Source of the DNA: a virus
Reading direction: 5' to 3' (one strand)
Virus record (IMG/VR): IMGVR_UViG_3300033463_000535
DNA length: 35,022 bases
Positions within the stretch are counted from its first letter, which is position 1, and each line of letters starts with the position of its first letter. Below, one piece after another: positions 1,396 through 35,022 of the stretch. The notes below the pieces were generated by a model. It did no database searches. It was not told the DNA's origin and worked only from the letters and a program-made list of their open reading frames with translations. A program made the translations under genes and the position numbers.

Positions 1396-1518
1396 ATGAA
1401 AAAAGAAAGTCGAAATATGTACAAAGTAGATTTTGCTAGGCATCTTCTTTTAATTTTGAAGAAATTAAATAGCATAGACAAAAAAATAGGCTCTAAAATC
1501 AAAAATAAGACAGTTTAA
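1396..1518 (+). CDS. Hypothetical 40-aa basic protein
   Basis: AGGAG at 1381-1385, ATG at 1396, stop at 1516-1518. MKKESRNMYKVDFARHLLLILKKLNSIDKKIGSKIKNKTV. Below the ORF-track length cut-off. Confidence 0.35.
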   Translation: MKKESRNMYKVDFARHLLLILKKLNSIDKKIGSKIKNKTV

Positions 1519-1602
1519 TATTTTAGACAATAAAGTTATTGGGTAGCATATTAAAATGCTTTTAAAGTTAAAAATAAAAAGAAATAGGAGGTAATAAATA
1601 AG

Positions 1603-2091
1603 ATGCCATATCCATATTATCAAAATAGTCAATTATATATGCAAGATTTACAAAATATGAAAGATAGAATAGACAGACAAATGCAACAATTACAACAAAA
1701 CCAACAGCAACAAATGCCACAACAACCAATTACACAAAACTTTCAATTAGCACCAACCCCCACGAACAATGAGTTGGAAATTAAATATGCTGATAATATA
1801 GCGGAGGTGAAAAACACGTTTGTAATGAAAACAGGAATATTTGTAAATAAAGATTTTTCTACAATGTGGGTAAAAGATGTTAGTGGGAATATTAGAACAT
1901 TTAATACACAGGAAGTAGTTGAAATGGATGAAAAAGATAAAGAAATATTAGCATTAAAAAAAGAAATAGAAAATATGAAAGGAATGATGGCAAATGCAAC
2001 TCAATATGATAACACAAACATTAATGAACCAACTAAAAACGAAAAACCCAAAAGGATTTCAAGCAATAAACACATTAATGCAAAACAATAA
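1603..2091 (+). CDS. Gln-rich hypothetical protein
   Basis: AGGAGG SD upstream. N-terminal PYPYYQNSQ..QQLQQNQQQQMPQQP low-complexity segment, then a folded-looking segment (IKYADNIAEVKNTFVMKTGIFVNKDFSTMWVKDVSGNIRTF) and a coiled coil. The last ~33 aa overlap the next ORF. Confidence 0.6.
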   Translation: MPYPYYQNSQLYMQDLQNMKDRIDRQMQQLQQNQQQQMPQQPITQNFQLAPTPTNNELEIKYADNIAEVKNTFVMKTGIFVNKDFSTMWVKDVSGNIRTFNTQEVVEMDEKDKEILALKKEIENMKGMMANATQYDNTNINEPTKNEKPKRISSNKHINAKQ

Positions 2092-2221
2092 TGATCCGCA
2101 GGCTATTTTACAACAAATGATGTCTGGAGCAACTGCAGAACAAAAAGAAAATTTGTTTAAGCAAGCTAAAAATTATGGAGTACCTGATGAAATTCTTTCA
2201 AAAATACAAAACATGAAATGA
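1994..2221 (+). CDS. Hypothetical helical protein in the +1 frame, overlapping the previous ORF by 98 nt
   Basis: MITQTLMNQLKTKNPKGFQAINTLMQNNNDPQAILQQMMSGATAEQKENLFKQAKNYGVPDEILSKIQ reads like a genuine helical protein. Only a weak SD (AAAGGA). Confidence 0.5.
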   Translation: MQLNMITQTLMNQLKTKNPKGFQAINTLMQNNNDPQAILQQMMSGATAEQKENLFKQAKNYGVPDEILSKIQNMK

Positions 2222-2271
2222 TAATAATTTTTATATTATTATAAATATTTTAAAGAAAGGAGGATAAAACT

Positions 2272-3189
2272 ATGGGAGATAATATGAGCCCAGCAGATGT
2301 GGCTGCAGTTGTTGGTAACACTGATAGAAACGTTGGTTATGGCTATCCAGTATATCCTTATGGCGGTGGATTTGGTAACAGCGGATTTGGAGGAGATGCT
2401 AGTTGGCTATGGCTAATAATTATCCTTGCCTTGTTTGGAGGTTGGGGAAATAATGGTAATGGCGGATTTGGTGGTTTTAATAATGACTATGCTTGGCTAT
2501 CAAATGGTCAAAAAGAAATTATGCAAAACACCAATGACGGATTTAACACACTACAATTAGCTAACCAATTAACAGGAATTAACTCTGGTGTACAAAACTT
2601 ATCTACACAGCTTTGTAACTGTTGTGCAGATGTAAATTCTAATTTATGTAATGGATTTGCAGGGGTAAATGCAACAGTAAATGGTGGATTTGCAAATGCT
2701 GAAACATCTGCTAATGCTAGACAAATGGCAAATATGCAACAAGCATTTAGCAACCAATTAAGTACTTTACAAGGGTTTAATGGTGTAAATTCTGCATTAT
2801 GTGATGCAAGTGCTGAAAACAGATTAGGACAGGCTAATTTGACATCAACAATATTAGCTGAAAACTGTGCTGATAGAGCAGCATTACAAGAAGGAGTTAG
2901 AGATATAATTACTAACCAAACAGCTAATACTCAAAGAATAATTGATGAAATATTTAGGGATAGACTAGATGAAAAAGACAGCAAGATTTCTGATTTACAA
3001 AGAGAATTGCAGATGGCTGATTTGAAAGCATCACAAATTGCACAAACACAAGCAATTACTCAAAATATCTATAATGAATTAAAGAACTGTCCTGTTGGAA
3101 CAGTGCCAGTATATGGCAACCAACCAATATTTACTTGTCCAAACAATAGTTGCGGATGTGGAAGTGCCTTTGGAAGCACAATAGTTTAA
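2272..3189 (+). CDS. Gly-rich / single-TM / Asn-Gln-Cys-rich protein. The N-terminus resembles YjcZ-type tiny-TM sporulation proteins
   Basis: AAGGAGG SD upstream. GGGFGNSGFGGDASWLWLIIILALFGGWGNNGNGGFGGF, then ~230 aa of N/Q/A-rich sequence with a coiled coil and 13 Cys, including CNCCADVNSNLC and CPNNSCGCG. Confidence 0.75.
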   Translation: MGDNMSPADVAAVVGNTDRNVGYGYPVYPYGGGFGNSGFGGDASWLWLIIILALFGGWGNNGNGGFGGFNNDYAWLSNGQKEIMQNTNDGFNTLQLANQLTGINSGVQNLSTQLCNCCADVNSNLCNGFAGVNATVNGGFANAETSANARQMANMQQAFSNQLSTLQGFNGVNSALCDASAENRLGQANLTSTILAENCADRAALQEGVRDIITNQTANTQRIIDEIFRDRLDEKDSKISDLQRELQMADLKASQIAQTQAITQNIYNELKNCPVGTVPVYGNQPIFTCPNNSCGCGSAFGSTIV

Positions 3190-3238
3190 TAGCAAAACGT
3201 CGATAAGACAAACCTGATTACAGGAACTTGCTAAAATA

Positions 3239-3268
3239 AAGGGATATAGCAAGTCTATATTCCTTTTT
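3239..3268 (+). terminator. Intrinsic terminator, with a competing upstream hairpin at 3226..3254
   Basis: AAGGGATATAG (3239-3249) / CTATATTCCTT (3255-3265): 11 bp with one G-U pair, loop caagt, then TTTaaTTT. Confidence 0.6.
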
Positions 3269-3293
3269 AATTTGAAATAAAGGAGGAAACGAT

Positions 3294-3764
3294 ATGAATG
3301 GAGTAATACAAGCTATACAAGAAACAGAAAGAGCATTAACTTCTAATACAGCTTCATTGCCATTTGATACAGTTGATTTAAGGACTAGAAGTGCCATGAA
3401 TTGCACAGGATTTATAAACCATAACGAAGGGAGTGCTTTGTTTAGTATATTAGATGGCGGAATATATGAAGTAACATTTAATGCAAATGTAACAAGTGCA
3501 ACTGCTGGAAATGTAGCATTAGCCTTATTTGCAGATGGAACACAAATAGCAGGAACAGAAATGGATGCAACAATAGCAACAGCAGGAGACTGGGAAAATA
3601 TAAGTTTTGATAAAAAGATAAGAGTATGTTGCAAAGGTACTGTAAATTTAGCAATTACATCATTGCCAACAACAACATTTAGTGGAACAGGCACACCAGT
3701 AATAACAGATACAGAAATTCCAATTATAAAAAATGCAAACATAAATATTGAAAGGCTTGCGTAA
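3294..3764 (+). CDS. All-beta protein resembling the BclA C-terminal / C1q-TNF jelly-roll domain (no collagen stalk)
   Basis: AAGGAGG SD upstream. GGIYEVTFNANVTSATAGNVALALFADGTQIAGTEMDATIATAGDWENISFDKKIRVCCKGTVNLAITS has the alternating beta pattern of BclA-CTD-type domains. Confidence 0.4.
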   Translation: MNGVIQAIQETERALTSNTASLPFDTVDLRTRSAMNCTGFINHNEGSALFSILDGGIYEVTFNANVTSATAGNVALALFADGTQIAGTEMDATIATAGDWENISFDKKIRVCCKGTVNLAITSLPTTTFSGTGTPVITDTEIPIIKNANINIERLA

Positions 3765-3937
3765 TGAATAAATTAGAAGATTTTTCAAATTGGTTACAAA
3801 TATTTAGTTTTTTAATATTAATAGAAGATTTTAATAATACCGATTTAATGAAGTATTTGGCACACCAAGATGAATTATTAGATAAAATAATAAATCAAAA
3901 CAATGAGATAATAACTCTATTGAAAGGGGGAAAATAG
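3764..3937 (+). CDS. Hypothetical 57-aa protein
   Basis: The ATG overlaps the previous stop (TAATG). MNKLEDFSNWLQIFSFLILIEDFNNTDLMKYLAHQDELLDKIINQNNEIITLLKGGK. It fills the gap exactly up to the next start. Confidence 0.5.
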   Translation: MNKLEDFSNWLQIFSFLILIEDFNNTDLMKYLAHQDELLDKIINQNNEIITLLKGGK

Positions 3938-3939
3938 TT

Positions 3940-4383
3940 TTGGATATAGAGGAAATTATTGAAACAATAGCACAAAATGGCAGATTAGAAGATATGGAAA
4001 AATTATCTGATATATTAGAAGATACAATGGAAATTGTAAAAAATTATGATGAAAAATGCTATGAAGATTTTGAAATGGAATTATATAAAATGGCTTATGG
4101 AAATAGGTTGAATTTTGAAATGGCTGAAAATATAGTAGAAAAAATGAGACCTTATGGAAAAAAATGGAGCATAGAAGAAACAAGACAAATGCAAGAACAA
4201 AGAGGCATAGTTGATATTTCTGATGTAGATTTTTATGTGGTTATAAATAGTGCGTATAATGATTATCAAAATCTTTTTGGCGAAAACTTAGAAGATTATA
4301 TAAGATTTACAGTAGATTTTATAAAAGATGAAGATGCAAAACAAGATAAAGTTTTTTTGTACTATACTCAAATACCAGAATAG
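3940..4383 (+). CDS. Acidic helical hypothetical protein (TTG start)
   Basis: GGGGGA SD upstream, then TTG. 147 aa; MELYKMAYGNRLNFEMAENIVEKMRPYGKKWSIEETRQMQEQRG..FYVVINSAYNDY. Confidence 0.65.
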   Translation: MDIEEIIETIAQNGRLEDMEKLSDILEDTMEIVKNYDEKCYEDFEMELYKMAYGNRLNFEMAENIVEKMRPYGKKWSIEETRQMQEQRGIVDISDVDFYVVINSAYNDYQNLFGENLEDYIRFTVDFIKDEDAKQDKVFLYYTQIPE

Positions 4384-4398
4384 AAAGGAGAAATAAAT

Positions 4399-4803
4399 AT
4401 GAATGATATGAGGGATTATGATAACAGAGATTACAGATATGACAACAGGTATTATGACGAAAACATACATGGCAATATGGGATATAGAGAAAACTACAGA
4501 GATGATTACAGGGAAGATTACAGAGATGACTACAGAAACTATAGAGACTATGATTACAGAAGGGATTATGACAGACGTGGTGGAAAAATAAATAACAGAA
4601 GCTACCGCAATTATAGAAATTATAGGGGCGGAGATTACTACGAGGAATTAGAAATGTTGATGATGGATATAAAAGAAACATCAAGAAAAATAGAAGATAT
4701 TGCTGACATGGCTACTAATCCACAAGATAGAAATATGCTTATGAAAATAGCTCAGAAAGAAAAAGAAAACCATAGTTTTATAAAACAATTACTAGAAAAA
4801 TAA
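4399..4803 (+). CDS. Arg/Asp/Tyr-repeat protein with a helical C-terminal domain (ferritin-like / Coat-F-like pattern)
   Basis: AAAGGAG SD upstream. Residues 1-80 are almost only R, D, Y, N (YRDDYREDYRDDYRNYRDYDYRRDYDRR). The C-terminus reads DIADMATNPQDRNMLMKIAQKEKENHSFIKQLL. Confidence 0.75.
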   Translation: MNDMRDYDNRDYRYDNRYYDENIHGNMGYRENYRDDYREDYRDDYRNYRDYDYRRDYDRRGGKINNRSYRNYRNYRGGDYYEELEMLMMDIKETSRKIEDIADMATNPQDRNMLMKIAQKEKENHSFIKQLLEK

Positions 4804-4804
4804 A

Positions 4805-5122
4805 ATGAAAGAAATATGTAAATTTATAATTAATGATAATATATATACAATTTATGATGTTGATAAAATAACAGGAAAAGATAATTATGTTGGAAGATCA
4901 CATTATGAAGATAGAACTATATATATTGAAAAAGGAAATTTAAAAGATATGTTATTGACTTTAAAACACGAACTTATGCACGTTTGGTTATACGAAAACG
5001 GACACACAAACCAAGACGGAAAAGAAGTGTTTGACTATGAAGATATGTGCGAGTTAGTGGCTTTGAGTAACAATTCAATTAATAGAATAGTAGAGTTATA
5101 TCTGCAAAATAAACAAGGGTAG
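4805..5122 (+). CDS. Mini zinc-metallopeptidase-like protein (HExxH)
   Basis: 105 aa. TLKHELMHVWLYENGH contains HELMH plus a downstream His (SprT/ImmA-like minimal fold). Confidence 0.55.
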   Translation: MKEICKFIINDNIYTIYDVDKITGKDNYVGRSHYEDRTIYIEKGNLKDMLLTLKHELMHVWLYENGHTNQDGKEVFDYEDMCELVALSNNSINRIVELYLQNKQG

Positions 5123-5181
5123 ATGCTTTTAAGTGTTTACTCTTTTTTTTATAAATTTTTTTATTTTTTTGTTTAAAAGTA

Positions 5182-5210
5182 TTGACAAAGTAAAAACAAC
5201 AATATATAAT
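5182..5210 (+). promoter_or_regulatory. Consensus sigma-A promoter (early operon)
   Basis: TTGACA (5182-5187), 17 nt, TATAAT (5205-5210), with a T-rich UP-like tract upstream. Confidence 0.8.
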
Positions 5211-6248: not shown

Positions 6249-6917
6249 ATGAATATTTATGAAAAATTACTAAAAATACAAATGGAGCTAAAAGCACCAA
6301 AAAACCAAACAAATAAATTTGGAGGATACAAATACAGAAGTTGTGAAGATATATTGGAAGCGGTAAAACCAATATGTGAAAAATACAAGGTAAGTTTAAT
6401 ATTAAATGATGACATTGTAGTACTAGGGGAAGGAAATGCACAAGTATTAAAAAATATTGATAAAAAAAACGATATAACAGATGAAGCAATAACATCTGGT
6501 CAAAGGTTTTATGTTAAAGCTACTGCAATGTTATATAACACAGAACTAGACAAAAATGGGCATTTAGAAACAGTTGGAAATACAGCATATGCAAGGGAAG
6601 CGGAAACAAAAAAAGGAATGGATGAAAGTCAAATAACAGGAACAGCAAGTAGTTATGCAAGGAAATATGCATTAAATGGATTGTTTAATATAGATGATAC
6701 AAAAGATGCAGATACAGATGAATTCGTTGAAAGAACACAAGGAAGTAGAATAACAAAAATACAAGAAGATGCATTGTATTTAAAAATAAAAAATAACAAT
6801 ATAGAAAATGATGATGTAATAGCAATTCTCAAAGAAAAAGGATATAGCAAATTAGCAGAAATTAAGATTGAAGATTATGTTGATATAGTAAAGAAAATAG
6901 AAAAATTAGGAGGATAA
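6249..6917 (+). CDS. erf: ERF-family single-strand annealing recombinase
   Basis: FGGYKYRSCEDILEAVKPICEKYKV and TGTASSYARKYALNGLFNIDD are hallmark ERF motifs. Confidence 0.85.
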   Translation: MNIYEKLLKIQMELKAPKNQTNKFGGYKYRSCEDILEAVKPICEKYKVSLILNDDIVVLGEGNAQVLKNIDKKNDITDEAITSGQRFYVKATAMLYNTELDKNGHLETVGNTAYAREAETKKGMDESQITGTASSYARKYALNGLFNIDDTKDADTDEFVERTQGSRITKIQEDALYLKIKNNNIENDDVIAILKEKGYSKLAEIKIEDYVDIVKKIEKLGG

Positions 6918-6920
6918 AAA

Positions 6921-7037
6921 ATGAAATATGAAAATATTACATTAGAAGAATGTATAGCTTACAATAAAATTGCAAAAATGATTTTTGAGTGTGATGCAGA
7001 TAAAAAAGAAGTTAAATTTAAAAGGGAGGAAGAATAA
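6921..7037 (+). CDS. Hypothetical 38-aa protein
   Basis: AGGAGGA SD upstream. The stop overlaps the next ATG (TAATG). Confidence 0.35.
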   Translation: MKYENITLEECIAYNKIAKMIFECDADKKEVKFKREEE

Positions 7038-7354
7038 TGGAGGAAATGTTGCAGCTAAACCAATTAAATACTTATTTGACATCTGCATTAAGTGAATACA
7101 AAAAAAGAGGAACAGAGTATGCAAAAGCATATAAAAATTATAGAATGTTATTAAGTCAAGAATTGTTAAAATTAAAAGCAGAAGGAATGCCTGTAACTAT
7201 TGCATATGATATAGCAAGGGGAACAGAACAAGTAGCAGATGCAAAAGAGCAAGAAATAATCACGGAATGTTTATATAAAAGTTGTCAAGAAGCGATAAAC
7301 ACATATAAATTACAAATAAAAATATTGCAAGAAAATATAAATAAGAATTATTAA
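7037..7354 (+). CDS. Helical hypothetical protein in the recombination module
   Basis: GGGAGGA SD upstream; 105 aa. Confidence 0.6.
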   Translation: MEEMLQLNQLNTYLTSALSEYKKRGTEYAKAYKNYRMLLSQELLKLKAEGMPVTIAYDIARGTEQVADAKEQEIITECLYKSCQEAINTYKLQIKILQENINKNY

Positions 7355-7367
7355 GGGGGAATTAAAA

Positions 7368-7613
7368 ATGAAACAATGGGAAATTATATTAAATGCAATG
7401 CTAACAAATAGAAATAAAATAACATGGACAGCAAAAGATTTTCAAAAAGAACCATATTTTGTAGGATATGAAGCAAGTGCAAGGATGAGTGAATTAGCTA
7501 AAATATATCCTGATTTAATAATAACAGGAAAAGATGGAAGATTTAGAACATTATCAATTAATTGGAATTGTGAAGAAATAGATATGTATTTAGAATTTTA
7601 TGTAGAGGAATAA
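7368..7613 (+). CDS. Hypothetical protein (possible winged-helix)
   Basis: GGGGGA SD upstream; 81 aa; YFVGYEASARMSELAKIYPDLI. Confidence 0.6.
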   Translation: MKQWEIILNAMLTNRNKITWTAKDFQKEPYFVGYEASARMSELAKIYPDLIITGKDGRFRTLSINWNCEEIDMYLEFYVEE

Positions 7614-7618
7614 AAATA

Positions 7619-8005
7619 ATGTATTGTAAAAATATGAGTAAGGCTTTAAATGGAAAAATAAGGTGTAAAAAAAGAAAAGGGTATATAGATATATACTTTC
7701 ACTGTCAAAATTGCTCAGATTTTATTTTGAAGCGAAATAAGCCTATAAAAAAAGTAAGTGATAAAAGAATTTTTGTAAAAAAGGAAATATATGATGAAGT
7801 TTATAAAAGAGATAAAGGAAAATGCAGGTTGATGAATAAAGAATGTCAAGGCGGTTTGGAATTGCATCATATAGTTTACAGATCAGAAAATAAAAATTTA
7901 ATAAATGAGCCAACAAATTGTATAATGTTATGTACTAGACATCATAAATTAGTACACAGCAACAAACATAAATGGCAACCAATTTTAAAGGAGATGATAA
8001 AATGA
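7619..8005 (+). CDS. HNH endonuclease with an N-terminal Cys-rich segment
   Basis: CRLMNKECQGGLELHHIVYRSE..NCIMLCTRHHKLVH is an HNH core. The N-terminus has C..C..HCQNC. Confidence 0.8.
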   Translation: MYCKNMSKALNGKIRCKKRKGYIDIYFHCQNCSDFILKRNKPIKKVSDKRIFVKKEIYDEVYKRDKGKCRLMNKECQGGLELHHIVYRSENKNLINEPTNCIMLCTRHHKLVHSNKHKWQPILKEMIK

Positions 8006-13861: not shown

Positions 13862-14905
13862 ATGAAAGTAGCCATAGACAAGAATTGTATAAAAAAAATA
13901 AAAGACTTTAAAGAATTTGAATATATATATATCTATGATGATGAAACCATACAAGAATTATTTAAAACAAATTTACATTGTATAAATAAAAGGGCAGCAA
14001 AAGATATTGATGTTGATATAAATTTGACAAATTATGAAATTAGTAGTATAAAAAAAGCAGATATAAATGATGAGAATTGGAAACAGCTGCCAAAAACAAA
14101 AGAAAATACATTTGTTATAATAGTACCGAATTATAATAATGATCATGGAGATTACAACGGAAAAACATTTTTAAGAAATTGTTTAGATAGCATATTAAAT
14201 CAAACATATAGGAATTTTTATTTAATATTTGTAGATGATTTAAGCACAGACACATCTGTAGAAACGATTAAAAGTTACAAAGATGAAAGAATACACTTAA
14301 TAAAAAATAAAAGGAAAAGATATAATGGAGGAAGTAGAAATGTCGGAATTGAGTATGCAATAGACAACTTGGATTTTGATTATTTCTGCTTTTTAGATAG
14401 TGATGATTGGTGGAAAGATAACACAATATTAGATTTTATAAATAAAAGAATATATAACAATGAAATGATGACATTGGGTTGTGAAGGAATAGGAGTACCA
14501 TATAGGCATTACAACGATGTTGAATGTTACGAAGATTTATATGCATTAAATAACAAGTTATGGTGTACAGCATGGAGTAAGGTAATAAGGAAAGATAAAA
14601 TAGTTTACTTTGAAGAAAGTACCTTGATGGAGGATAGAGTATGGACATATAAATTAGCGGACAATCTTGATTTTGATAAAGTAGTAAATTCAAACAAATT
14701 ATGTTATTGTTGGAACAGAACTAACATAGATAATAGTGTAAGCCTTGTGAGAAGTGAATTTTGGGATGCTTGTGCTTGGTGTCATATAGGACATCAATTG
14801 CAGCTAATAACACAAATGAAGCACAAGGAAATGATACCAAAAATACAAGAAAGAATAAATCAATGTATAGATAAGATAAATAGAGGAATATACCAACAAT
14901 ATTAA
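13862..14905 (+). CDS. Family-2 glycosyltransferase (GT-A) with an ~85-aa N-terminal extension
   Basis: FVIIVPNYNN..LRNCLDSILNQTYRNFYLIFVDDLSTDTS..GGSRNVGIEYA..FCFLDSDDWW has the GT2 motifs, including DxD. Confidence 0.85.
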   Translation: MKVAIDKNCIKKIKDFKEFEYIYIYDDETIQELFKTNLHCINKRAAKDIDVDINLTNYEISSIKKADINDENWKQLPKTKENTFVIIVPNYNNDHGDYNGKTFLRNCLDSILNQTYRNFYLIFVDDLSTDTSVETIKSYKDERIHLIKNKRKRYNGGSRNVGIEYAIDNLDFDYFCFLDSDDWWKDNTILDFINKRIYNNEMMTLGCEGIGVPYRHYNDVECYEDLYALNNKLWCTAWSKVIRKDKIVYFEESTLMEDRVWTYKLADNLDFDKVVNSNKLCYCWNRTNIDNSVSLVRSEFWDACAWCHIGHQLQLITQMKHKEMIPKIQERINQCIDKINRGIYQQY

Positions 14906-14914
14906 GGAGTAAGT

Positions 14915-15616
14915 ATGAAATATATAGTAATGTGTGGCGGAAGGTATCCAGAATTTAGCGAGCCAAAACAATTGATAAAAGTAAATGGTGAAGTATTAGT
15001 AGAACGCACAGTAAGATTATTAAAAGAAAACGGAATAGATGATATAGCAATATGTACTAATTGCAATAAGTTTGATTACATAGGAGTTCCAATATTGATG
15101 CAAGACAACGATTATATAGCAGATAGCGAACAAGAAAAAATAAACTCAAAAGCCTGTTGGCTAAATGCTTATTATCCGATGGAAGAGCCTTGTTGTTATT
15201 TACATGGAGACGTATATTTTTCACCAGAAGCAATTAAAACGATTATAGACACAGAAGTTAAAGATACAATGTTCTTTTGTACATTCGATTGGACAGATGG
15301 AGTTAAAGACAGAAGGAATTACAAAGGACGTGAGCCATTTGCATATAAAGTAGTAAATCAAAAGTTATTTAGACAAGGCATAAATGATTTAATGAAAATG
15401 GTAGATGAGGGAAAATTTAAAAATGGACTGCCACCTATATGTTGGCAGTTATACAGATACTTAAATGGATTAGAGATAGATTATAACACAAAAGATTGGA
15501 CACAAATTAACAATATATTTCAAACTAAAGGAGATTATGTAGTTATTAATGATTACACAACAGATGTAGATCACCCAGAAGATGCAAAAATTATGGAGGA
15601 ATGGTTAAAGAAATGA
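14915..15616 (+). CDS. Sugar-phosphate nucleotidyltransferase-like protein
   Basis: MKYIVMCGGRYPEFSEPKQLIKVNGEVLVERTVRLLKENGIDDIAI matches the N-terminal GxG..PK(Q)L..v.G signature of NTP_transferase folds. Confidence 0.6.
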   Translation: MKYIVMCGGRYPEFSEPKQLIKVNGEVLVERTVRLLKENGIDDIAICTNCNKFDYIGVPILMQDNDYIADSEQEKINSKACWLNAYYPMEEPCCYLHGDVYFSPEAIKTIIDTEVKDTMFFCTFDWTDGVKDRRNYKGREPFAYKVVNQKLFRQGINDLMKMVDEGKFKNGLPPICWQLYRYLNGLEIDYNTKDWTQINNIFQTKGDYVVINDYTTDVDHPEDAKIMEEWLKK

Positions 15617-16656
15617 TAATAGCAATGTGTGCAACAAGGAACTGGTATTTTTATACCGCAGTCGCCTTATATTCGATTTTAAGCCATAATAAAGTACAAA
15701 AGGTCTATTTATTTATTGAAGATGACAAAATCCCTTATATTCAAGATAAACGTGTTAAATTTATAAACATAAACAAAATTCCAAAGTATGTTAAAGAAAC
15801 AAGTCTTAATTACAATACACATTATACAAGAATGAGTTATACAAGATGTTTTTTTAGTAAGGTATTGAAAGAAGACAAAATAATATATCTTGATGTAGAT
15901 GCATTAGTAGTAGATAATATACAAGATTTATGGAACATGGATTTAGAAGGAAATTACATTGCAGGAGCACATGAAGGTGGAGAATGGGATAAACACTTGC
16001 AATTACAAGGATTTGATGATACATACATAAATAGCGGAGTGTTGGTAATTGATTTAAAAAAAACAAGAAAACACAAATTAGATGACAAAATGATAGAACT
16101 GTTAAATACAAAAAAATATTTATTTCCAGACCAAGATGTAATAAACATAGTATATAAGGGAAAAATAAAACATATTAGCAATATATATAATTCTGCAGAA
16201 ACAACAGGAATAGTAGATAATGCAAAAATAATACATTACATAAAAGAACACAAAGGGTGGATAAAAGAAAGTCCACGAAGTGAAATATGGTTACATAATT
16301 ATAAATTATACATAAAAAATTTATTTAAAGGAGGAAAAAAGATGTTTAGAGGAACAGTAGTAAAAAGGTTTACATTAGGAAGCAACCCTGAATACAAATT
16401 TGAAGATTTGAAAATTATTTCAAGAAAAGACAGAAATGTAGAAGGGGAACTATTTGTAGGAGATGTAATAGAAGGTAGCAACAAAATGTGTGAATATTTA
16501 CAAGGTGGAAATCCTACAAAAGAAGCATATTTAGATGATGAAACATTAGAGACTTTTCCTGATGAAAAGGAAATTGAAAAAGAAGAAAAGACTAAAAAGA
16601 TAGAAAAGAAAGTAACAAAAAAGACAACAACTAGAAGAAAAACAACAAAAAAATAA
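15601..16656 (+). CDS. Family-8 glycosyltransferase fused in frame to a ~105-aa small phage protein module (internal SD plus ATG at 16342)
   Basis: IIYLDVDALVVDNIQDLWNMDL..YINSGVLVIDLKK..LFPDQDVINIV are GT8 motifs. The start may be 15613 (ATGA overlap). The tail module reads MFRGTVVKRFTLGSNPEYKFEDLK..GELFVGDVIEGSNKMCEYLQGGNP plus a K/T-rich end. Confidence 0.8.
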   Translation: MVKEMIIAMCATRNWYFYTAVALYSILSHNKVQKVYLFIEDDKIPYIQDKRVKFININKIPKYVKETSLNYNTHYTRMSYTRCFFSKVLKEDKIIYLDVDALVVDNIQDLWNMDLEGNYIAGAHEGGEWDKHLQLQGFDDTYINSGVLVIDLKKTRKHKLDDKMIELLNTKKYLFPDQDVINIVYKGKIKHISNIYNSAETTGIVDNAKIIHYIKEHKGWIKESPRSEIWLHNYKLYIKNLFKGGKKMFRGTVVKRFTLGSNPEYKFEDLKIISRKDRNVEGELFVGDVIEGSNKMCEYLQGGNPTKEAYLDDETLETFPDEKEIEKEEKTKKIEKKVTKKTTTRRKTTKK

Positions 16657-16665
16657 GAGGTAAAA

Positions 16666-17199
16666 ATGGATAAATTAAAAATAGAGTATGTAGATATTAA
16701 TAGTATAAAACCATATAAAAATAATGCAAAATTACACCCTGAAGAACAAATAGAACAAATTAAAAATAGTATAGAGCAATTTGGCATGGATGATCCTATA
16801 GGGATTTGGAAAGATGAAATAGTAGAAGGACATGGAAGATTGATAGCTTGTAAAGAATTAGGCTATACAGAAGTGCCAATAATAAGACTTGACCACTTAT
16901 CAGACGAAGAAAGAAAAGCATATACATTAGCACACAATAAACTAACAATGAACTCAGATTTTGATATAGATATATTAAATAGTGAACTGGATGAAATATT
17001 AGATATAGACATGTCAGACTTTGGTTTTGAAAATATAGATATAGATTGGGATACAGTAGAAGATTTAACTACTACAAATTATGACAAACCTGAACATAAT
17101 ATGTTAGAATGTCCACAATGTCATCATATAGACAGAGATATACATTTTAAAAAAGTAAAAGATGTTGATATCGACGAAGAAGAATTGAGTGATGAGTAA
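16666..17199 (+). CDS. ParB N-terminal (ParB/Srx) domain protein, possible DpdB-like partner
   Basis: INSIKPYKNNAKLHPEEQIEQIKNSIEQFGMDDPIGIW..IVEGHGRLIACKELGYTEVPIIRLDHLSDEERKAYTLAHNK. The C-terminus has CPQCHH. Confidence 0.8.
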   Translation: MDKLKIEYVDINSIKPYKNNAKLHPEEQIEQIKNSIEQFGMDDPIGIWKDEIVEGHGRLIACKELGYTEVPIIRLDHLSDEERKAYTLAHNKLTMNSDFDIDILNSELDEILDIDMSDFGFENIDIDWDTVEDLTTTNYDKPEHNMLECPQCHHIDRDIHFKKVKDVDIDEEELSDE

Positions 17200-17969
17200 T
17201 GAAAGTGTTTTTAAGTGCATTAGAAAATGCTCAAGCAAGTGGAAAAAATGCTAAATCAGTTGCTCAATTATTAATAGAAAAAAATATAAAAATGAATTTT
17301 AATTTAATGAGTTTTTATTATATTAAAGGAAAAATAGATTTAGCAAGAATGATAAGAGATAACAGTAAAGAAATATTAATAGATAGTGGAGCACATTCTT
17401 TTCAAAAAGGTAAGAAAGTAGATTGGGACAAATATACAGAACAATATGCAGAATTCATAAAAAAATTTGATAAACCTAATGTAATAGGATATTTTGAAAT
17501 GGATGTCGACAACATAATTGGTTATGAGAAAGTACGAGAATTAAGAGAGAAGCTAGAAAAAGTATCAGACAAGATAATACCAGTGTGGCATAAAAATAGA
17601 GGCATAGAAGAATATAAAAAAATGTGTAAAGATTATGAAAGGAAAATAATAGCAATAACAGGATTTAAAAATGAAGATATAAAAGATGAACAATATTTAA
17701 TGTTTTTAAAGTATGCAAAAAAATATAGATGTAAGGTACATTGTTTAGGAATGACAAGAAGAAAAGTTTTAGACAAAGTACCTTTTGATTATGTTGATAG
17801 TAGTTCTTGGGTTCAATCAACCGTATATGGAAGAATAGATGGAAAAGGTAAAGTAACAAAGGAAATGAGTAGAAATAATAGAGAGGTGGTGTTTATAGAA
17901 AATTATAAAACAGGTATGAAAATACAAGAACACTATTATAAAAAATGGAAAAAAATATGTAATGATTAA
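17199..17969 (+). CDS. dpdA: DpdA-like DNA (7-deazaguanine) transglycosylase, TGT-fold
   Basis: LIDSGAHSFQ (cf. TGT DSGGFQ), IAITGF, VHCLGMT (cf. LMGVG) and PFDYVDSSSW (cf. DMFDCV) appear in TGT order. The neighbours are a preQ1-type riboswitch and YhhQ. Confidence 0.6.
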   Translation: MKVFLSALENAQASGKNAKSVAQLLIEKNIKMNFNLMSFYYIKGKIDLARMIRDNSKEILIDSGAHSFQKGKKVDWDKYTEQYAEFIKKFDKPNVIGYFEMDVDNIIGYEKVRELREKLEKVSDKIIPVWHKNRGIEEYKKMCKDYERKIIAITGFKNEDIKDEQYLMFLKYAKKYRCKVHCLGMTRRKVLDKVPFDYVDSSSWVQSTVYGRIDGKGKVTKEMSRNNREVVFIENYKTGMKIQEHYYKKWKKICND

Positions 17970-34758: not shown

Positions 34759-35022
34759 ATGTGGGAACAAGTTAAACCATTTAGTATTAGAAAAATGGGA
34801 AAAAGAAAAGGATATTGCTTGCAAAATGTTAGACTAGGATTTGGCATACCATCAAAATATGCAAGTGCTAAAGTTGATATGGAAGCTAACAAAAGAGCAG
34901 GAACATTGCACCCTATATCTACTATTCCAACAAATGTATCTGTTCCTGTTTATGTAGATACATCAAGTAAATATGAACATATTATAGTATGTGATCACGG
35001 AACATATTATTCAGATGGGAAG
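34759..35022 (+). CDS. Endolysin, 5' part (continues at 1..418 on the circular map)
   Basis: GAGGAGGG SD upstream. MWEQVKPFSIRKMGKRKGYCLQNVRLGFGIPSKYASAKVDMEANKRAGTLHPIS.. No stop before the window end. Confidence 0.75.
   Translation, partial: MWEQVKPFSIRKMGKRKGYCLQNVRLGFGIPSKYASAKVDMEANKRAGTLHPISTIPTNVSVPVYVDTSSKYEHIIVCDHGTYYSDGK
34896..35022. repeat. Terminal duplication, copy 2 (identical to 1..127)
   Basis: Same 127-nt string as 1..127. The unique genome length is therefore 34,895 bp. Confidence 0.95.

Follow-up and report, generated by a model that had tools for sequence, protein, structure and literature searches.

A mobile accessory gene cassette that pairs a long helical protein with a C1q/TNF-like protein in otherwise unrelated rumen and gut phages

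Between the lysis genes and the early genes of the virus recorded as IMGVR_UViG_3300033463_000535 stand nine genes whose products resemble no standard phage function, which raises the question of what they are and why a phage should carry them. They occupy positions 1396-5122 of the window, i.e. of the whole stretch of 35,022 nucleotides that was analysed, and are called p1 to p9 here in the order in which they are read. The original prediction, made from the letters of the DNA without database searches, had described them as a self-contained cluster of compositionally extreme proteins, and had proposed either a module acting on, or mimicking, the spore or cell surface of the host, or an undescribed system unrelated to spores. 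Its observation of the genes is confirmed by our analysis; its interpretation is supported in part, the spore component being without support. The nine genes belong to an autonomous accessory cassette, here in one copy, which is horizontally exchanged among otherwise unrelated phages of the rumen and gut.

The conservation of the block was assessed on loci fetched by p4 alone (80 viral and 80 genome loci), and per-gene counts were taken over 84 loci, also chosen by p4 alone. Homologues of p5 are present in 81 of these 84 loci, those of p2 in 72, of p6 in 67 and of p3 in 55, followed by p7 (32), p8 (26), p9 (22) and p1 (10). p5 adjoins p4 in about 157 of 164 loci, most of the exceptions being found at contig ends. 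The claim that the genes form a self-contained unit, co-occurring as a block in other phages, is thus borne out, as all nine proteins are conserved and appear in the same order.

Family profiles built from the fetched loci distinguish three main architectures, to which a fourth, found later, was added, and the gene order is fixed over about 240 loci distributed among these four. All of them begin with a gene encoding a helix-turn-helix (HTH) protein, called 'sig' here. In type C, that of the window, this gene is followed by p1, p2, p3, p4, p5, p6, p7, p8 and p9. Type A is composed of the HTH gene, a Cys-peptidase-like gene, p2, p3, p4, p5, a gene denoted p8d and a gene for a helical protein; type B, of the HTH gene, p2, p3, p4, p5, p6, a gene for a helical protein and the Cys-peptidase-like gene; and type D, of the HTH gene, p2, p3, a short p4, p5 and a DUF7841 gene. 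The order sig-p2-p3-p4-p5 is kept in the four architectures, down to about 30% protein identity, and profile-profile comparison with hhalign links the divergent versions to one another (p2/p2d, 95%; p3/p3d, 77%; p6/N-terminus of p8d, 98%). The cassette is composed of p4 and p5 as an invariant pair, accompanied by p2, p3, an acidic helical protein and a small peptidase in fixed order.

The peptidase slot is occupied by a Cys-type gene in types A and B, and by the HExxH protein p9 in type C. The Cys-peptidase-like protein is 126 aa long, with an invariant D-C...H...D pattern, and is annotated 'putative peptidase' in some Bacillus phages; it matches by sequence neither a Pfam family nor a solved structure, and its profile, like that of p2, yields nothing or noise against PDB sequences. 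This protein (phrog_3754) is not confined to the cassette, as Geobacillus phage GBK2, Tsamsa-like Bacillus phages and Lak megaphages encode it outside such a context.

Both families at the heart of the cassette are large. The p4 and p5 searches saturated at 8,000 candidates, with 7,975 of 8,000 scored candidates (90% identity clusters) for p4 and 7,997 of 8,000 for p5, so that the family sizes are lower bounds. After clustering at 50%, an exhaustive profile search gives 938 p4 representatives at E 1e-3, 485 at E 1e-10 and 142 at E 1e-30. No informative name is found among the p4 and p5 family matches shown. Every identifiable environmental source is rumen or gut, including metagenome-assembled genomes from ruminants and phages from the faeces of humans, lemurs and a woodrat. 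At the nucleotide level, the block gives no megablast match in GenBank phages, and the p8d-type protein gives no tblastn match in phages.

The carriers have little else in common. At a tblastn threshold of E 1e-4, p4 and p5 are all that links the window phage to Butyrivibrio virus Ceridwen, while its similarity to bajarodcaudo virus 2 is limited to p4, the portal gene and two tail genes; among the 84 loci, there are few homologues of the tail-tip genes of the window and none of its endolysin. The position of the cassette also differs between genomes. In Ceridwen, the layout is as in the window, with lysin, HTH gene, terminator, cassette, terminator and early genes in succession; in bajarodcaudo virus 2, the cassette and its HTH gene are flanked by the portal gene and the capsid gene, at a distance of 12 kb from the endolysin gene; and in temperate phages, the cassette occupies the interval from the lysin gene to the integrase gene, the latter being divergent in Dulem virus 33. 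In about one tenth of the loci with enough downstream sequence, a tyrosine integrase is encoded on the opposite strand about 1.2-1.6 kb after p4, and the carriers comprise virulent-looking as well as temperate phages, some with no integrase detected near the cassette. Ceridwen itself was isolated on Butyrivibrio fibrisolvens and was observed in the lytic cycle only, according to its published description (PMC7372960).

The distribution is patchy. When contigs were picked by an unrelated gene, that of the Erf-like recombinase (48 contigs, each with at least 6 kb upstream), p4 was present in only 10 of the 48. The carrier contigs were binned with many lineages, some of them not known to sporulate. 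The block thus combines what characterises an accessory cassette: its own terminators, a conserved -10 box of predicted promoter activity and a patchy distribution (10/48). As a separate observation, the Dulem virus 33 locus (L165) contains, at 6862-7413 and on the opposite strand, an endonuclease gene between p3 and p4 that looks like a homing-type insertion.

The core protein, p4 (2272-3189, + strand, 305 aa), was characterised by an AlphaFold2 model, by alignments and by hydropathy. It is rich in Asn (13%) and Gly (12%), contains ten Cys and has one hydrophobic segment. The model consists of a short N-terminal helix, a helix formed by the hydrophobic segment (residues ~44-55, flanked by Gly) and a continuous helix from residue 90 to residue 271, i.e. 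of about 180 residues, carrying CNCC/CCC motifs, before a Cys-rich tail of low confidence; its predicted template modelling score (pTM) is 0.21. The hydrophobic segment is found in 87% of the p4 homologues. Invariant residues comprise an L76-N88 motif just after this anchor, several Cys and a tail of the form C-P...F-T-C...C-G-C, including C273-P274...C289...C294-G295-C296. No domain fusion of p4 was found, the best 150 representatives all being at most 367 aa long, and its C-terminal half recombines independently of the remaining cassette. The N-terminus of p4 had been likened to the YjcZ family of tiny sporulation proteins, which finds no support, as there is no Pfam or NCBIfam match at E<=1; YjcZ is a protein of about 30-50 aa, to be compared with the 305 aa of p4, and a Gly-rich hydrophobic motif is the only resemblance.

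p5 (3294-3764, + strand) is a stand-alone protein of 156 aa, for which Pfam, AlphaFold2 and Foldseek point to a jelly-roll of the C1q/TNF/BclA C-terminal domain type. It matches the Pfam family BclA_C (PF18573) at E 2e-6 with 28.1 bits, below the curated cut-off of 38. PF18573 is matched at E<=1 by 9 of 15 diverse p5 homologues, the best E value (2.1e-6) being that of the p5 of the window, and about half of the close homologues have a precomputed match to this family. The AlphaFold2 model has a beta-sandwich core with a predicted local distance difference test score (pLDDT) of 66-80, to which about 45 residues modelled with low confidence are added at the N-terminus; the protein contains conserved Cys pairs. 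Foldseek searches of this model against the PDB retrieve C1q, BclA and 4-1BBL at E 4e-5 to 2e-4, with template modelling scores (TM-scores) of 0.42-0.52, as well as cerebellin and the receptor-binding end of lambda gpJ, and those against the viral structure library BFVD retrieve the tips of collagen-like fibres and of tail fibres, together with human-gut phage proteins that are stand-alone and about 135 aa long. The profile of p5 has no match among PDB sequences. Taken together, the sub-threshold BclA_C matches and the structural matches to C1q, BclA and TNF-family ligands are in agreement with the C1q/BclA-like beta protein that had been anticipated in the block, and we assign a C1q/TNF-type jelly-roll fold to p5 with moderate confidence, on the basis of the model. 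Collagen-like GXY repeats are absent from the p5 sequence, and the exosporium leader (TIGR03720) gives no NCBIfam match in p5 at E<=1. An identity as an Ena/DUF3992-type subunit was also considered for p5 and rejected, as there is no hidden Markov model (HMM) signal for it; the F-ENA paper does not mention phages.

p5 is found as alleles, which are about 80% or about 30% identical to the p5 of the window inside otherwise similar cassettes. These alleles do not co-vary with the adjacent C-terminus of p4 (Spearman 0.16). The tail genes of the carriers are not homologous to one another. In bajarodcaudo virus 2 (locus L002), the post-p4 position is occupied by a Cys-rich, 134-aa protein of beta type (6788-7192), with no detectable similarity to p5 (hhalign probability <1%); it may be a non-homologous replacement of p5.

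The boundaries of the cassette, as they had been described from the sequence, are all present. A terminator-like hairpin with a T run (1322-1353, + strand) closes the lysis/late unit and separates 'sig' from the remaining cassette, and a second one (5115-5144, + strand) closes the cassette just before a consensus early promoter with a 12/12 match (5182-5210), located directly beyond it. Of 58 related intergenic regions, at least 33 have a hairpin comparable to that at 1322-1353. An additional landmark, absent from the original prediction, separates p4 from p5: a hairpin and T run (3238-3266, + strand), which could be a partial terminator or an mRNA-stabilising element; a comparable one is found in 78 of the 84 loci having a p4-p5 gap of 40-400 nt.

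Concerning initiation, the weak promoter that had been suggested at 1523-1552 does not stand out from chance, as it scores 9/12 and 49 such sites are found for 45 expected in shuffled sequence. The alignment of 18 sig-to-p2 intergenic regions points instead to a -10-like box, TATACT (1358-1363, + strand), as the candidate cassette promoter. In relatives, the box reads TATAAT, TACAAT or, often, TGnTAnAAT, with no recognisable -35 element; the latter is missing because the -35 position falls within the terminator stem. The box sits immediately 3' of the terminator of the HTH gene, an arrangement that recurs across the 18 aligned loci, which are divergent in sequence, and it looks vegetative, of the sigma-A type.

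The gene preceding this terminator (u4 or 'sig', 1069-1311, + strand) encodes an HTH protein of 80 aa resembling sigma-70 region 4 or LuxR, and is the conserved first gene of the cassette. It is recovered at E 1e-22 by an iterative search starting from a distant locus, its family is found in 112 loci, and it travels along where the cassette has shifted into the head-gene cluster. Its HMM matches are weak (TIGR02937, E 0.0065; HTH_24, E 0.0035; for a homologue, GerE, E 0.016, and Sigma70_r4, E 0.061). 'sig' thus belongs to the cassette and is likely its regulator. In some phage contigs (L178, L183 and L185), p4 and p5 are missing and the HTH gene precedes a p7-like gene of the DUF7841 family, so that the position next to the HTH gene may be one where alternative cargo is preferentially inserted.

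The remaining genes were characterised individually. The nine + strand open reading frames (ORFs) are present with the compositions that had been noted, most of them with good Shine-Dalgarno sites. That none resembles a standard phage function is likewise upheld, as no function is known for any of the matching PHROG families (21718, 22984, 16490, 20016 and 3754), p9 alone having weak peptidase matches; in particular, neither Pfam nor PHROGs nor NCBIfam connects p2, p3, p6 or p8 to a family with a known function. p1 (1396-1518, + strand), a Lys-rich peptide of 40 aa with a good Shine-Dalgarno site, is the first ORF past the terminator; besides the 10 loci in which homologues are found, distant loci have a small ORF at the same position. 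p2 (1603-2091, + strand; Q 12%, N 12%), which matches phrog_21718, is Gln/Asn-rich at its N-terminus and conserved and beta-rich in its middle, and ends with a short coiled coil and a Lys/Ser tail. p3 (1994-2221, + strand) is a Gln/Met-rich helical protein of 75 aa; its gene shares 98 nt with p2 (1994-2091), read in a different frame. Such an overlap, about 95-137 nt long, is present in 87 of 92 related loci and is a stable dual-coding region, as the sequences of both proteins are conserved; the overlapping helical ORF, found in more than half of the 84 loci as seen above, is a real gene. A programmed frameshift joining p2 and p3 was rejected, as p3 is in the +1 frame with its own ATG and Shine-Dalgarno site.

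p6 (3764-3937, + strand) is a helical peptide of 57 aa, homologous to the N-terminal part of the p8d of other cassette types. p7 (3940-4383, + strand), the acidic helical protein that had been noticed, has a net charge of -20 and is a member of Pfam DUF7841 (52.1 bits for a cut-off of 25.2, E 9e-14). p8 (4399-4803, + strand) consists of an Arg-Asp-Tyr low-complexity region (D 15%, R 15%, Y 14%) followed by a C-terminal helical segment, which hhalign finds to be weakly related to p8d and h125; its Arg-Asp-Tyr richness had been rightly noted, but the Coat-F/ferritin-like end that had been read into it has no match in Pfam, PHROGs or NCBIfam. p9 (4805-5122, + strand), a 105-aa HExxH protein as had been proposed, is a putative minimal Zn-peptidase by its motif and by weak peptidase matches. 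H55, E56 and H59 are invariant among 16 full-length homologues, in which E64, E79 and E83 are also conserved, and sub-threshold matches are obtained with Peptidase_M91 (E 0.013), SprT-like (E 0.061), M78 (E 0.21) and the peptidase family phrog_13742 (E 7e-6). p9 was also considered as an ImmA-like anti-repressor and rejected, as type B has the Cys-peptidase-like gene in the slot and no repressor gene adjoins p9. No signal peptide or lipobox is found in the sequence of any product, and p4 is the only one of them with a hydrophobic segment.

To survive its passage among phages whose heads, tails, lysins and replication genes are unrelated, the cassette must bring a benefit of its own, and finding this benefit would give a function to a sizeable piece of the gut viral 'dark matter'. 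The explanation that we favour, although with low confidence, is that it encodes an envelope-anchored accessory complex acting in competition between phages, and that it is part neither of the virion nor of the lysis machinery. From the features described above, we infer membrane insertion, complex formation, proteolysis, a timing of expression and a biological role, as follows. The cassette would be transcribed on its own from the -10-only promoter just after the HTH-gene terminator, probably under the control of the HTH protein (1069-1311), and the hairpin after p4 would let p1-p4 transcripts accumulate above those of p5-p9. p4 would anchor in the cytoplasmic membrane through its Gly-rich hydrophobic segment and oligomerise via its ~180-residue helix, giving a long stalk that ends in the invariant Cys-rich tail. 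p5, as a probably trimeric, C1q/TNF-like binding module, would work with p4, while the small Gln/Met-rich p2 and p3 and the helical or low-complexity p6 to p8 could be assembly partners, and the small peptidase, p9 here and of Cys type elsewhere, could process one of the components. The complex would then act at the envelope of the infected or lysogenic cell, most likely in superinfection exclusion or in an abortive-type defence.

The link to the envelope is drawn because of the hydrophobic segment of p4, modelled as a helix and kept in most homologues, and because of a marginal similarity to the tail of ZorA, which is the best PDB sequence match of the p4 profile (E 0.0026; NCBIfam ZorA1, E 0.055). 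The PDB sequence search with p4 gives marginal matches of coiled-coil type and no others. A variable partner is hinted at by the divergence of the p5 alleles and by the independent recombination of the C-terminal half of p4. Several points nevertheless weigh against an envelope-anchored complex. The hydrophobic core of p4 is short (~10-12 residues), the bajarodcaudo homologue is devoid of it, and the charges around the anchor do not settle its topology; the confidence of the AlphaFold2 models is modest (mean pLDDT ~61 for p4 and ~60 for p5); and the similarity to ZorA may just mirror a polar coiled-coil composition. As p4 alone has a hydrophobic segment and signal peptides are absent, p5 would have to meet p4 on the cytoplasmic side. 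Furthermore, no homologue of known function supports any role, and PADLOC gives no significant defence-system match for p2-p9, the HTH gene having a weak match of HTH type only. Known superinfection-exclusion factors are usually single small proteins, to be compared with a cassette of six to nine genes. The cassette could alternatively build a self-assembling, non-virion structure of a new class, in which an anchored, Cys-rich p4 stalk would carry p5, be built by low-complexity helpers, matured by the peptidase, switched on by the sigma-region-4-like protein and passed on as one unit between thousands of rumen and gut phages; we regard this as rather unlikely. The combination of genes is not described by any curated family, defence catalogue, solved structure or paper that was searched, and literature searches on DUF7841, on BclA/C1q in gut phages and on a conserved rumen-phage cluster found nothing relevant.

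The same proteins could also be imagined as a virion appendage, with p4 as its coiled-coil shaft, p5 as its distal C1q-like knob, the other genes as chaperones and the peptidase maturing the fibre. Viral C1q-like folds are indeed found mainly at fibre tips, as in the collagen-like fibres of phages and giant viruses, in tail fibres and at the lambda gpJ C-terminus, the lack of signal peptides is expected for virion parts assembled in the cytoplasm, and the p5 alleles and the mosaic C-terminal half of p4 behave like receptor-binding proteins. The strong Shine-Dalgarno sites of p2, p4, p5 and p8 and the post-p4 hairpin, as often found after genes of abundant proteins, would also suit a structural component, as would the location of the cassette among head genes in bajarodcaudo virus 2. 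However, the carriers have no detectable similarity in their head, tail and lysis genes, hence no common docking partner; most phages with related early genes are devoid of the cassette; a terminator stands between it and the structural operon, and it has a regulator of its own; p4 has a membrane-anchor-like segment; and the tail genes of the window form a full set without it. In the passages of PMC7372960 retrieved by a term search, no virion proteome is reported for Ceridwen, and cassette genes were found in no further phage with a virion proteome. A virion appendage is unlikely, and so, to the same degree, is an accessory function in lysis or host takeover, in which the anchored coiled-coil complex would tune the timing of lysis or remodel the envelope or cell division, as a functional analogue of an i-spanin, an antiholin or a protein of the phi29 p16.7 type. 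The latter could account for the location of the cassette directly 3' of the holin and endolysin genes in most loci, and for the layout of p4, since i-spanins have an N-terminal anchor, a coiled coil and conserved Cys; the -10-only promoter could moreover allow an expression of its own, early or very late. Yet the association with lysis genes is broken in bajarodcaudo virus 2, there is neither a lipoprotein partner nor a lipobox in any product, and the only cultured host, Butyrivibrio, which has a wall of Gram-positive type and no outer membrane, offers none to span; the patchy distribution speaks against a core role in lysis. Both a virion fibre and a core lysis role are weakened by the separate punctuation of the cassette, its own regulator, its exchange between phages, its patchiness and the absence of a tie to a virion lineage.

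The spore-surface module of the original prediction, whose products would act on or mimic the spore coat or exosporium of a sporulating host, is very improbable. It draws on the relationship of p5 to the BclA C-terminal domain and on Cys-, Tyr- and Gly-rich compositions that recall coat proteins; the missing signal peptides would fit assembly in the mother-cell cytoplasm, and the small peptidase together with the GerE-like HTH (Pfam GerE in one homologue, see above) would parallel coat maturation. But no YjcZ, Coat-F or exosporium-leader match is found at E<=1, nor collagen repeats in p5; the full cassette is present in Ceridwen, grown lytically on B. fibrisolvens, which to our knowledge does not sporulate; some of the many lineages with which carriers are binned are not known to sporulate; the conserved -10 box is of sigma-A type; and C1q-like knobs are common in viruses of non-sporulating hosts. 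The products recall spore-coat proteins in their composition and, for p5, in the fold, but in nothing else, and the evidence favours the other branch of that proposal, an undescribed system unrelated to spores. Least credible of all is a chance neighbourhood of unrelated small 'moron' genes without a shared function. Although every product is hypothetical and p7-p9 are swapped for other genes in other architectures, the adjacency of p4 and p5 in nearly all loci, the kept order sig-p2-p3-p4-p5 and the joint movement of the genes to a different context refute it for the core of the cassette. An envelope-anchored complex stays our tentative proposal, and the question is testable, as Ceridwen is a cultured phage with the complete cassette.

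The first 127 bases of the window are identical to the last ones (1-127 and 34896-35022), which indicates a complete circular assembly; the phage is a complete siphovirus of about 34.9 kb with a G+C content of about 28%, all genes being on the + strand and the endolysin gene spanning the junction of the window ends. Its head, tail and packaging genes (portal, minor head protein, scaffold, major head protein, tape measure) are standard, with a TerL about 38% identical to that of Listeria phage A118. Two small membrane/coiled-coil ORFs (483-1005) lie after the endolysin gene, before the HTH gene. The early and middle region encodes an Erf-like recombinase, a ParB-like nuclease and a DpdA-like transglycosylase. 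In this region, a possible DNA-modification cluster (13862-17969) comprises a glycosyltransferase-like ORF (13862-14905), the ParB-like nuclease gene (16666-17199) and a homologue of DpdA-like queuine tRNA-ribosyltransferase (17199-17969; phrog_887, E 4e-40); to judge from their similarities, these genes together suggest a 7-deazaguanine modification of the phage DNA.

Among known systems, i-spanins of the Rz type share with p4 an N-terminal anchor, an extended coiled coil, conserved Cys and a gene adjoining the lysis cassette; unlike spanins, p4 has no o-spanin lipoprotein partner, its cassette is also found away from lysis genes, and no sequence similarity was detected. The tail of Zorya ZorA (PDB 8QYY/8QYD; NCBIfam NF041794) is, like p4, membrane-anchored, with a long, polar, N/Q/S/T/G-rich helix. 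p4 is however less than half as long as ZorA, aligns with its tail region alone and has one short hydrophobic segment in place of the MotA-like four-helix membrane domain, and the cassette has no genes for the Zorya partners ZorB, ZorC and ZorD. p5 is of the same jelly-roll class as the BclA C-terminal domain and the C1q/TNF-like viral fibre knobs (PF18573; PDB 1WCK and 1PK6; lambda gpJ C-terminus, 8XCJ), with Foldseek E values of about 1e-4 to 1e-6, TM-scores of 0.45-0.55 and repeated sub-threshold PF18573 matches, but differs from BclA in being stand-alone, without a collagen or fibre shaft and without an exosporium leader, and in its conserved Cys pairs. As a whole, the cassette resembles phage morons and accessory cassettes, which occupy the same slot between the lysin gene and the integrase or early region and likewise have their own terminators, a promoter-like element, a patchy distribution and horizontal exchange. 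Unlike morons of one or two genes, it comprises six to nine genes in fixed order with a regulator of its own, and none of its components matches a known conversion, toxin or defence gene. The cassette thus fits no known kind of system; it may still turn out to provide superinfection exclusion, or a fibre, in an unusual form.

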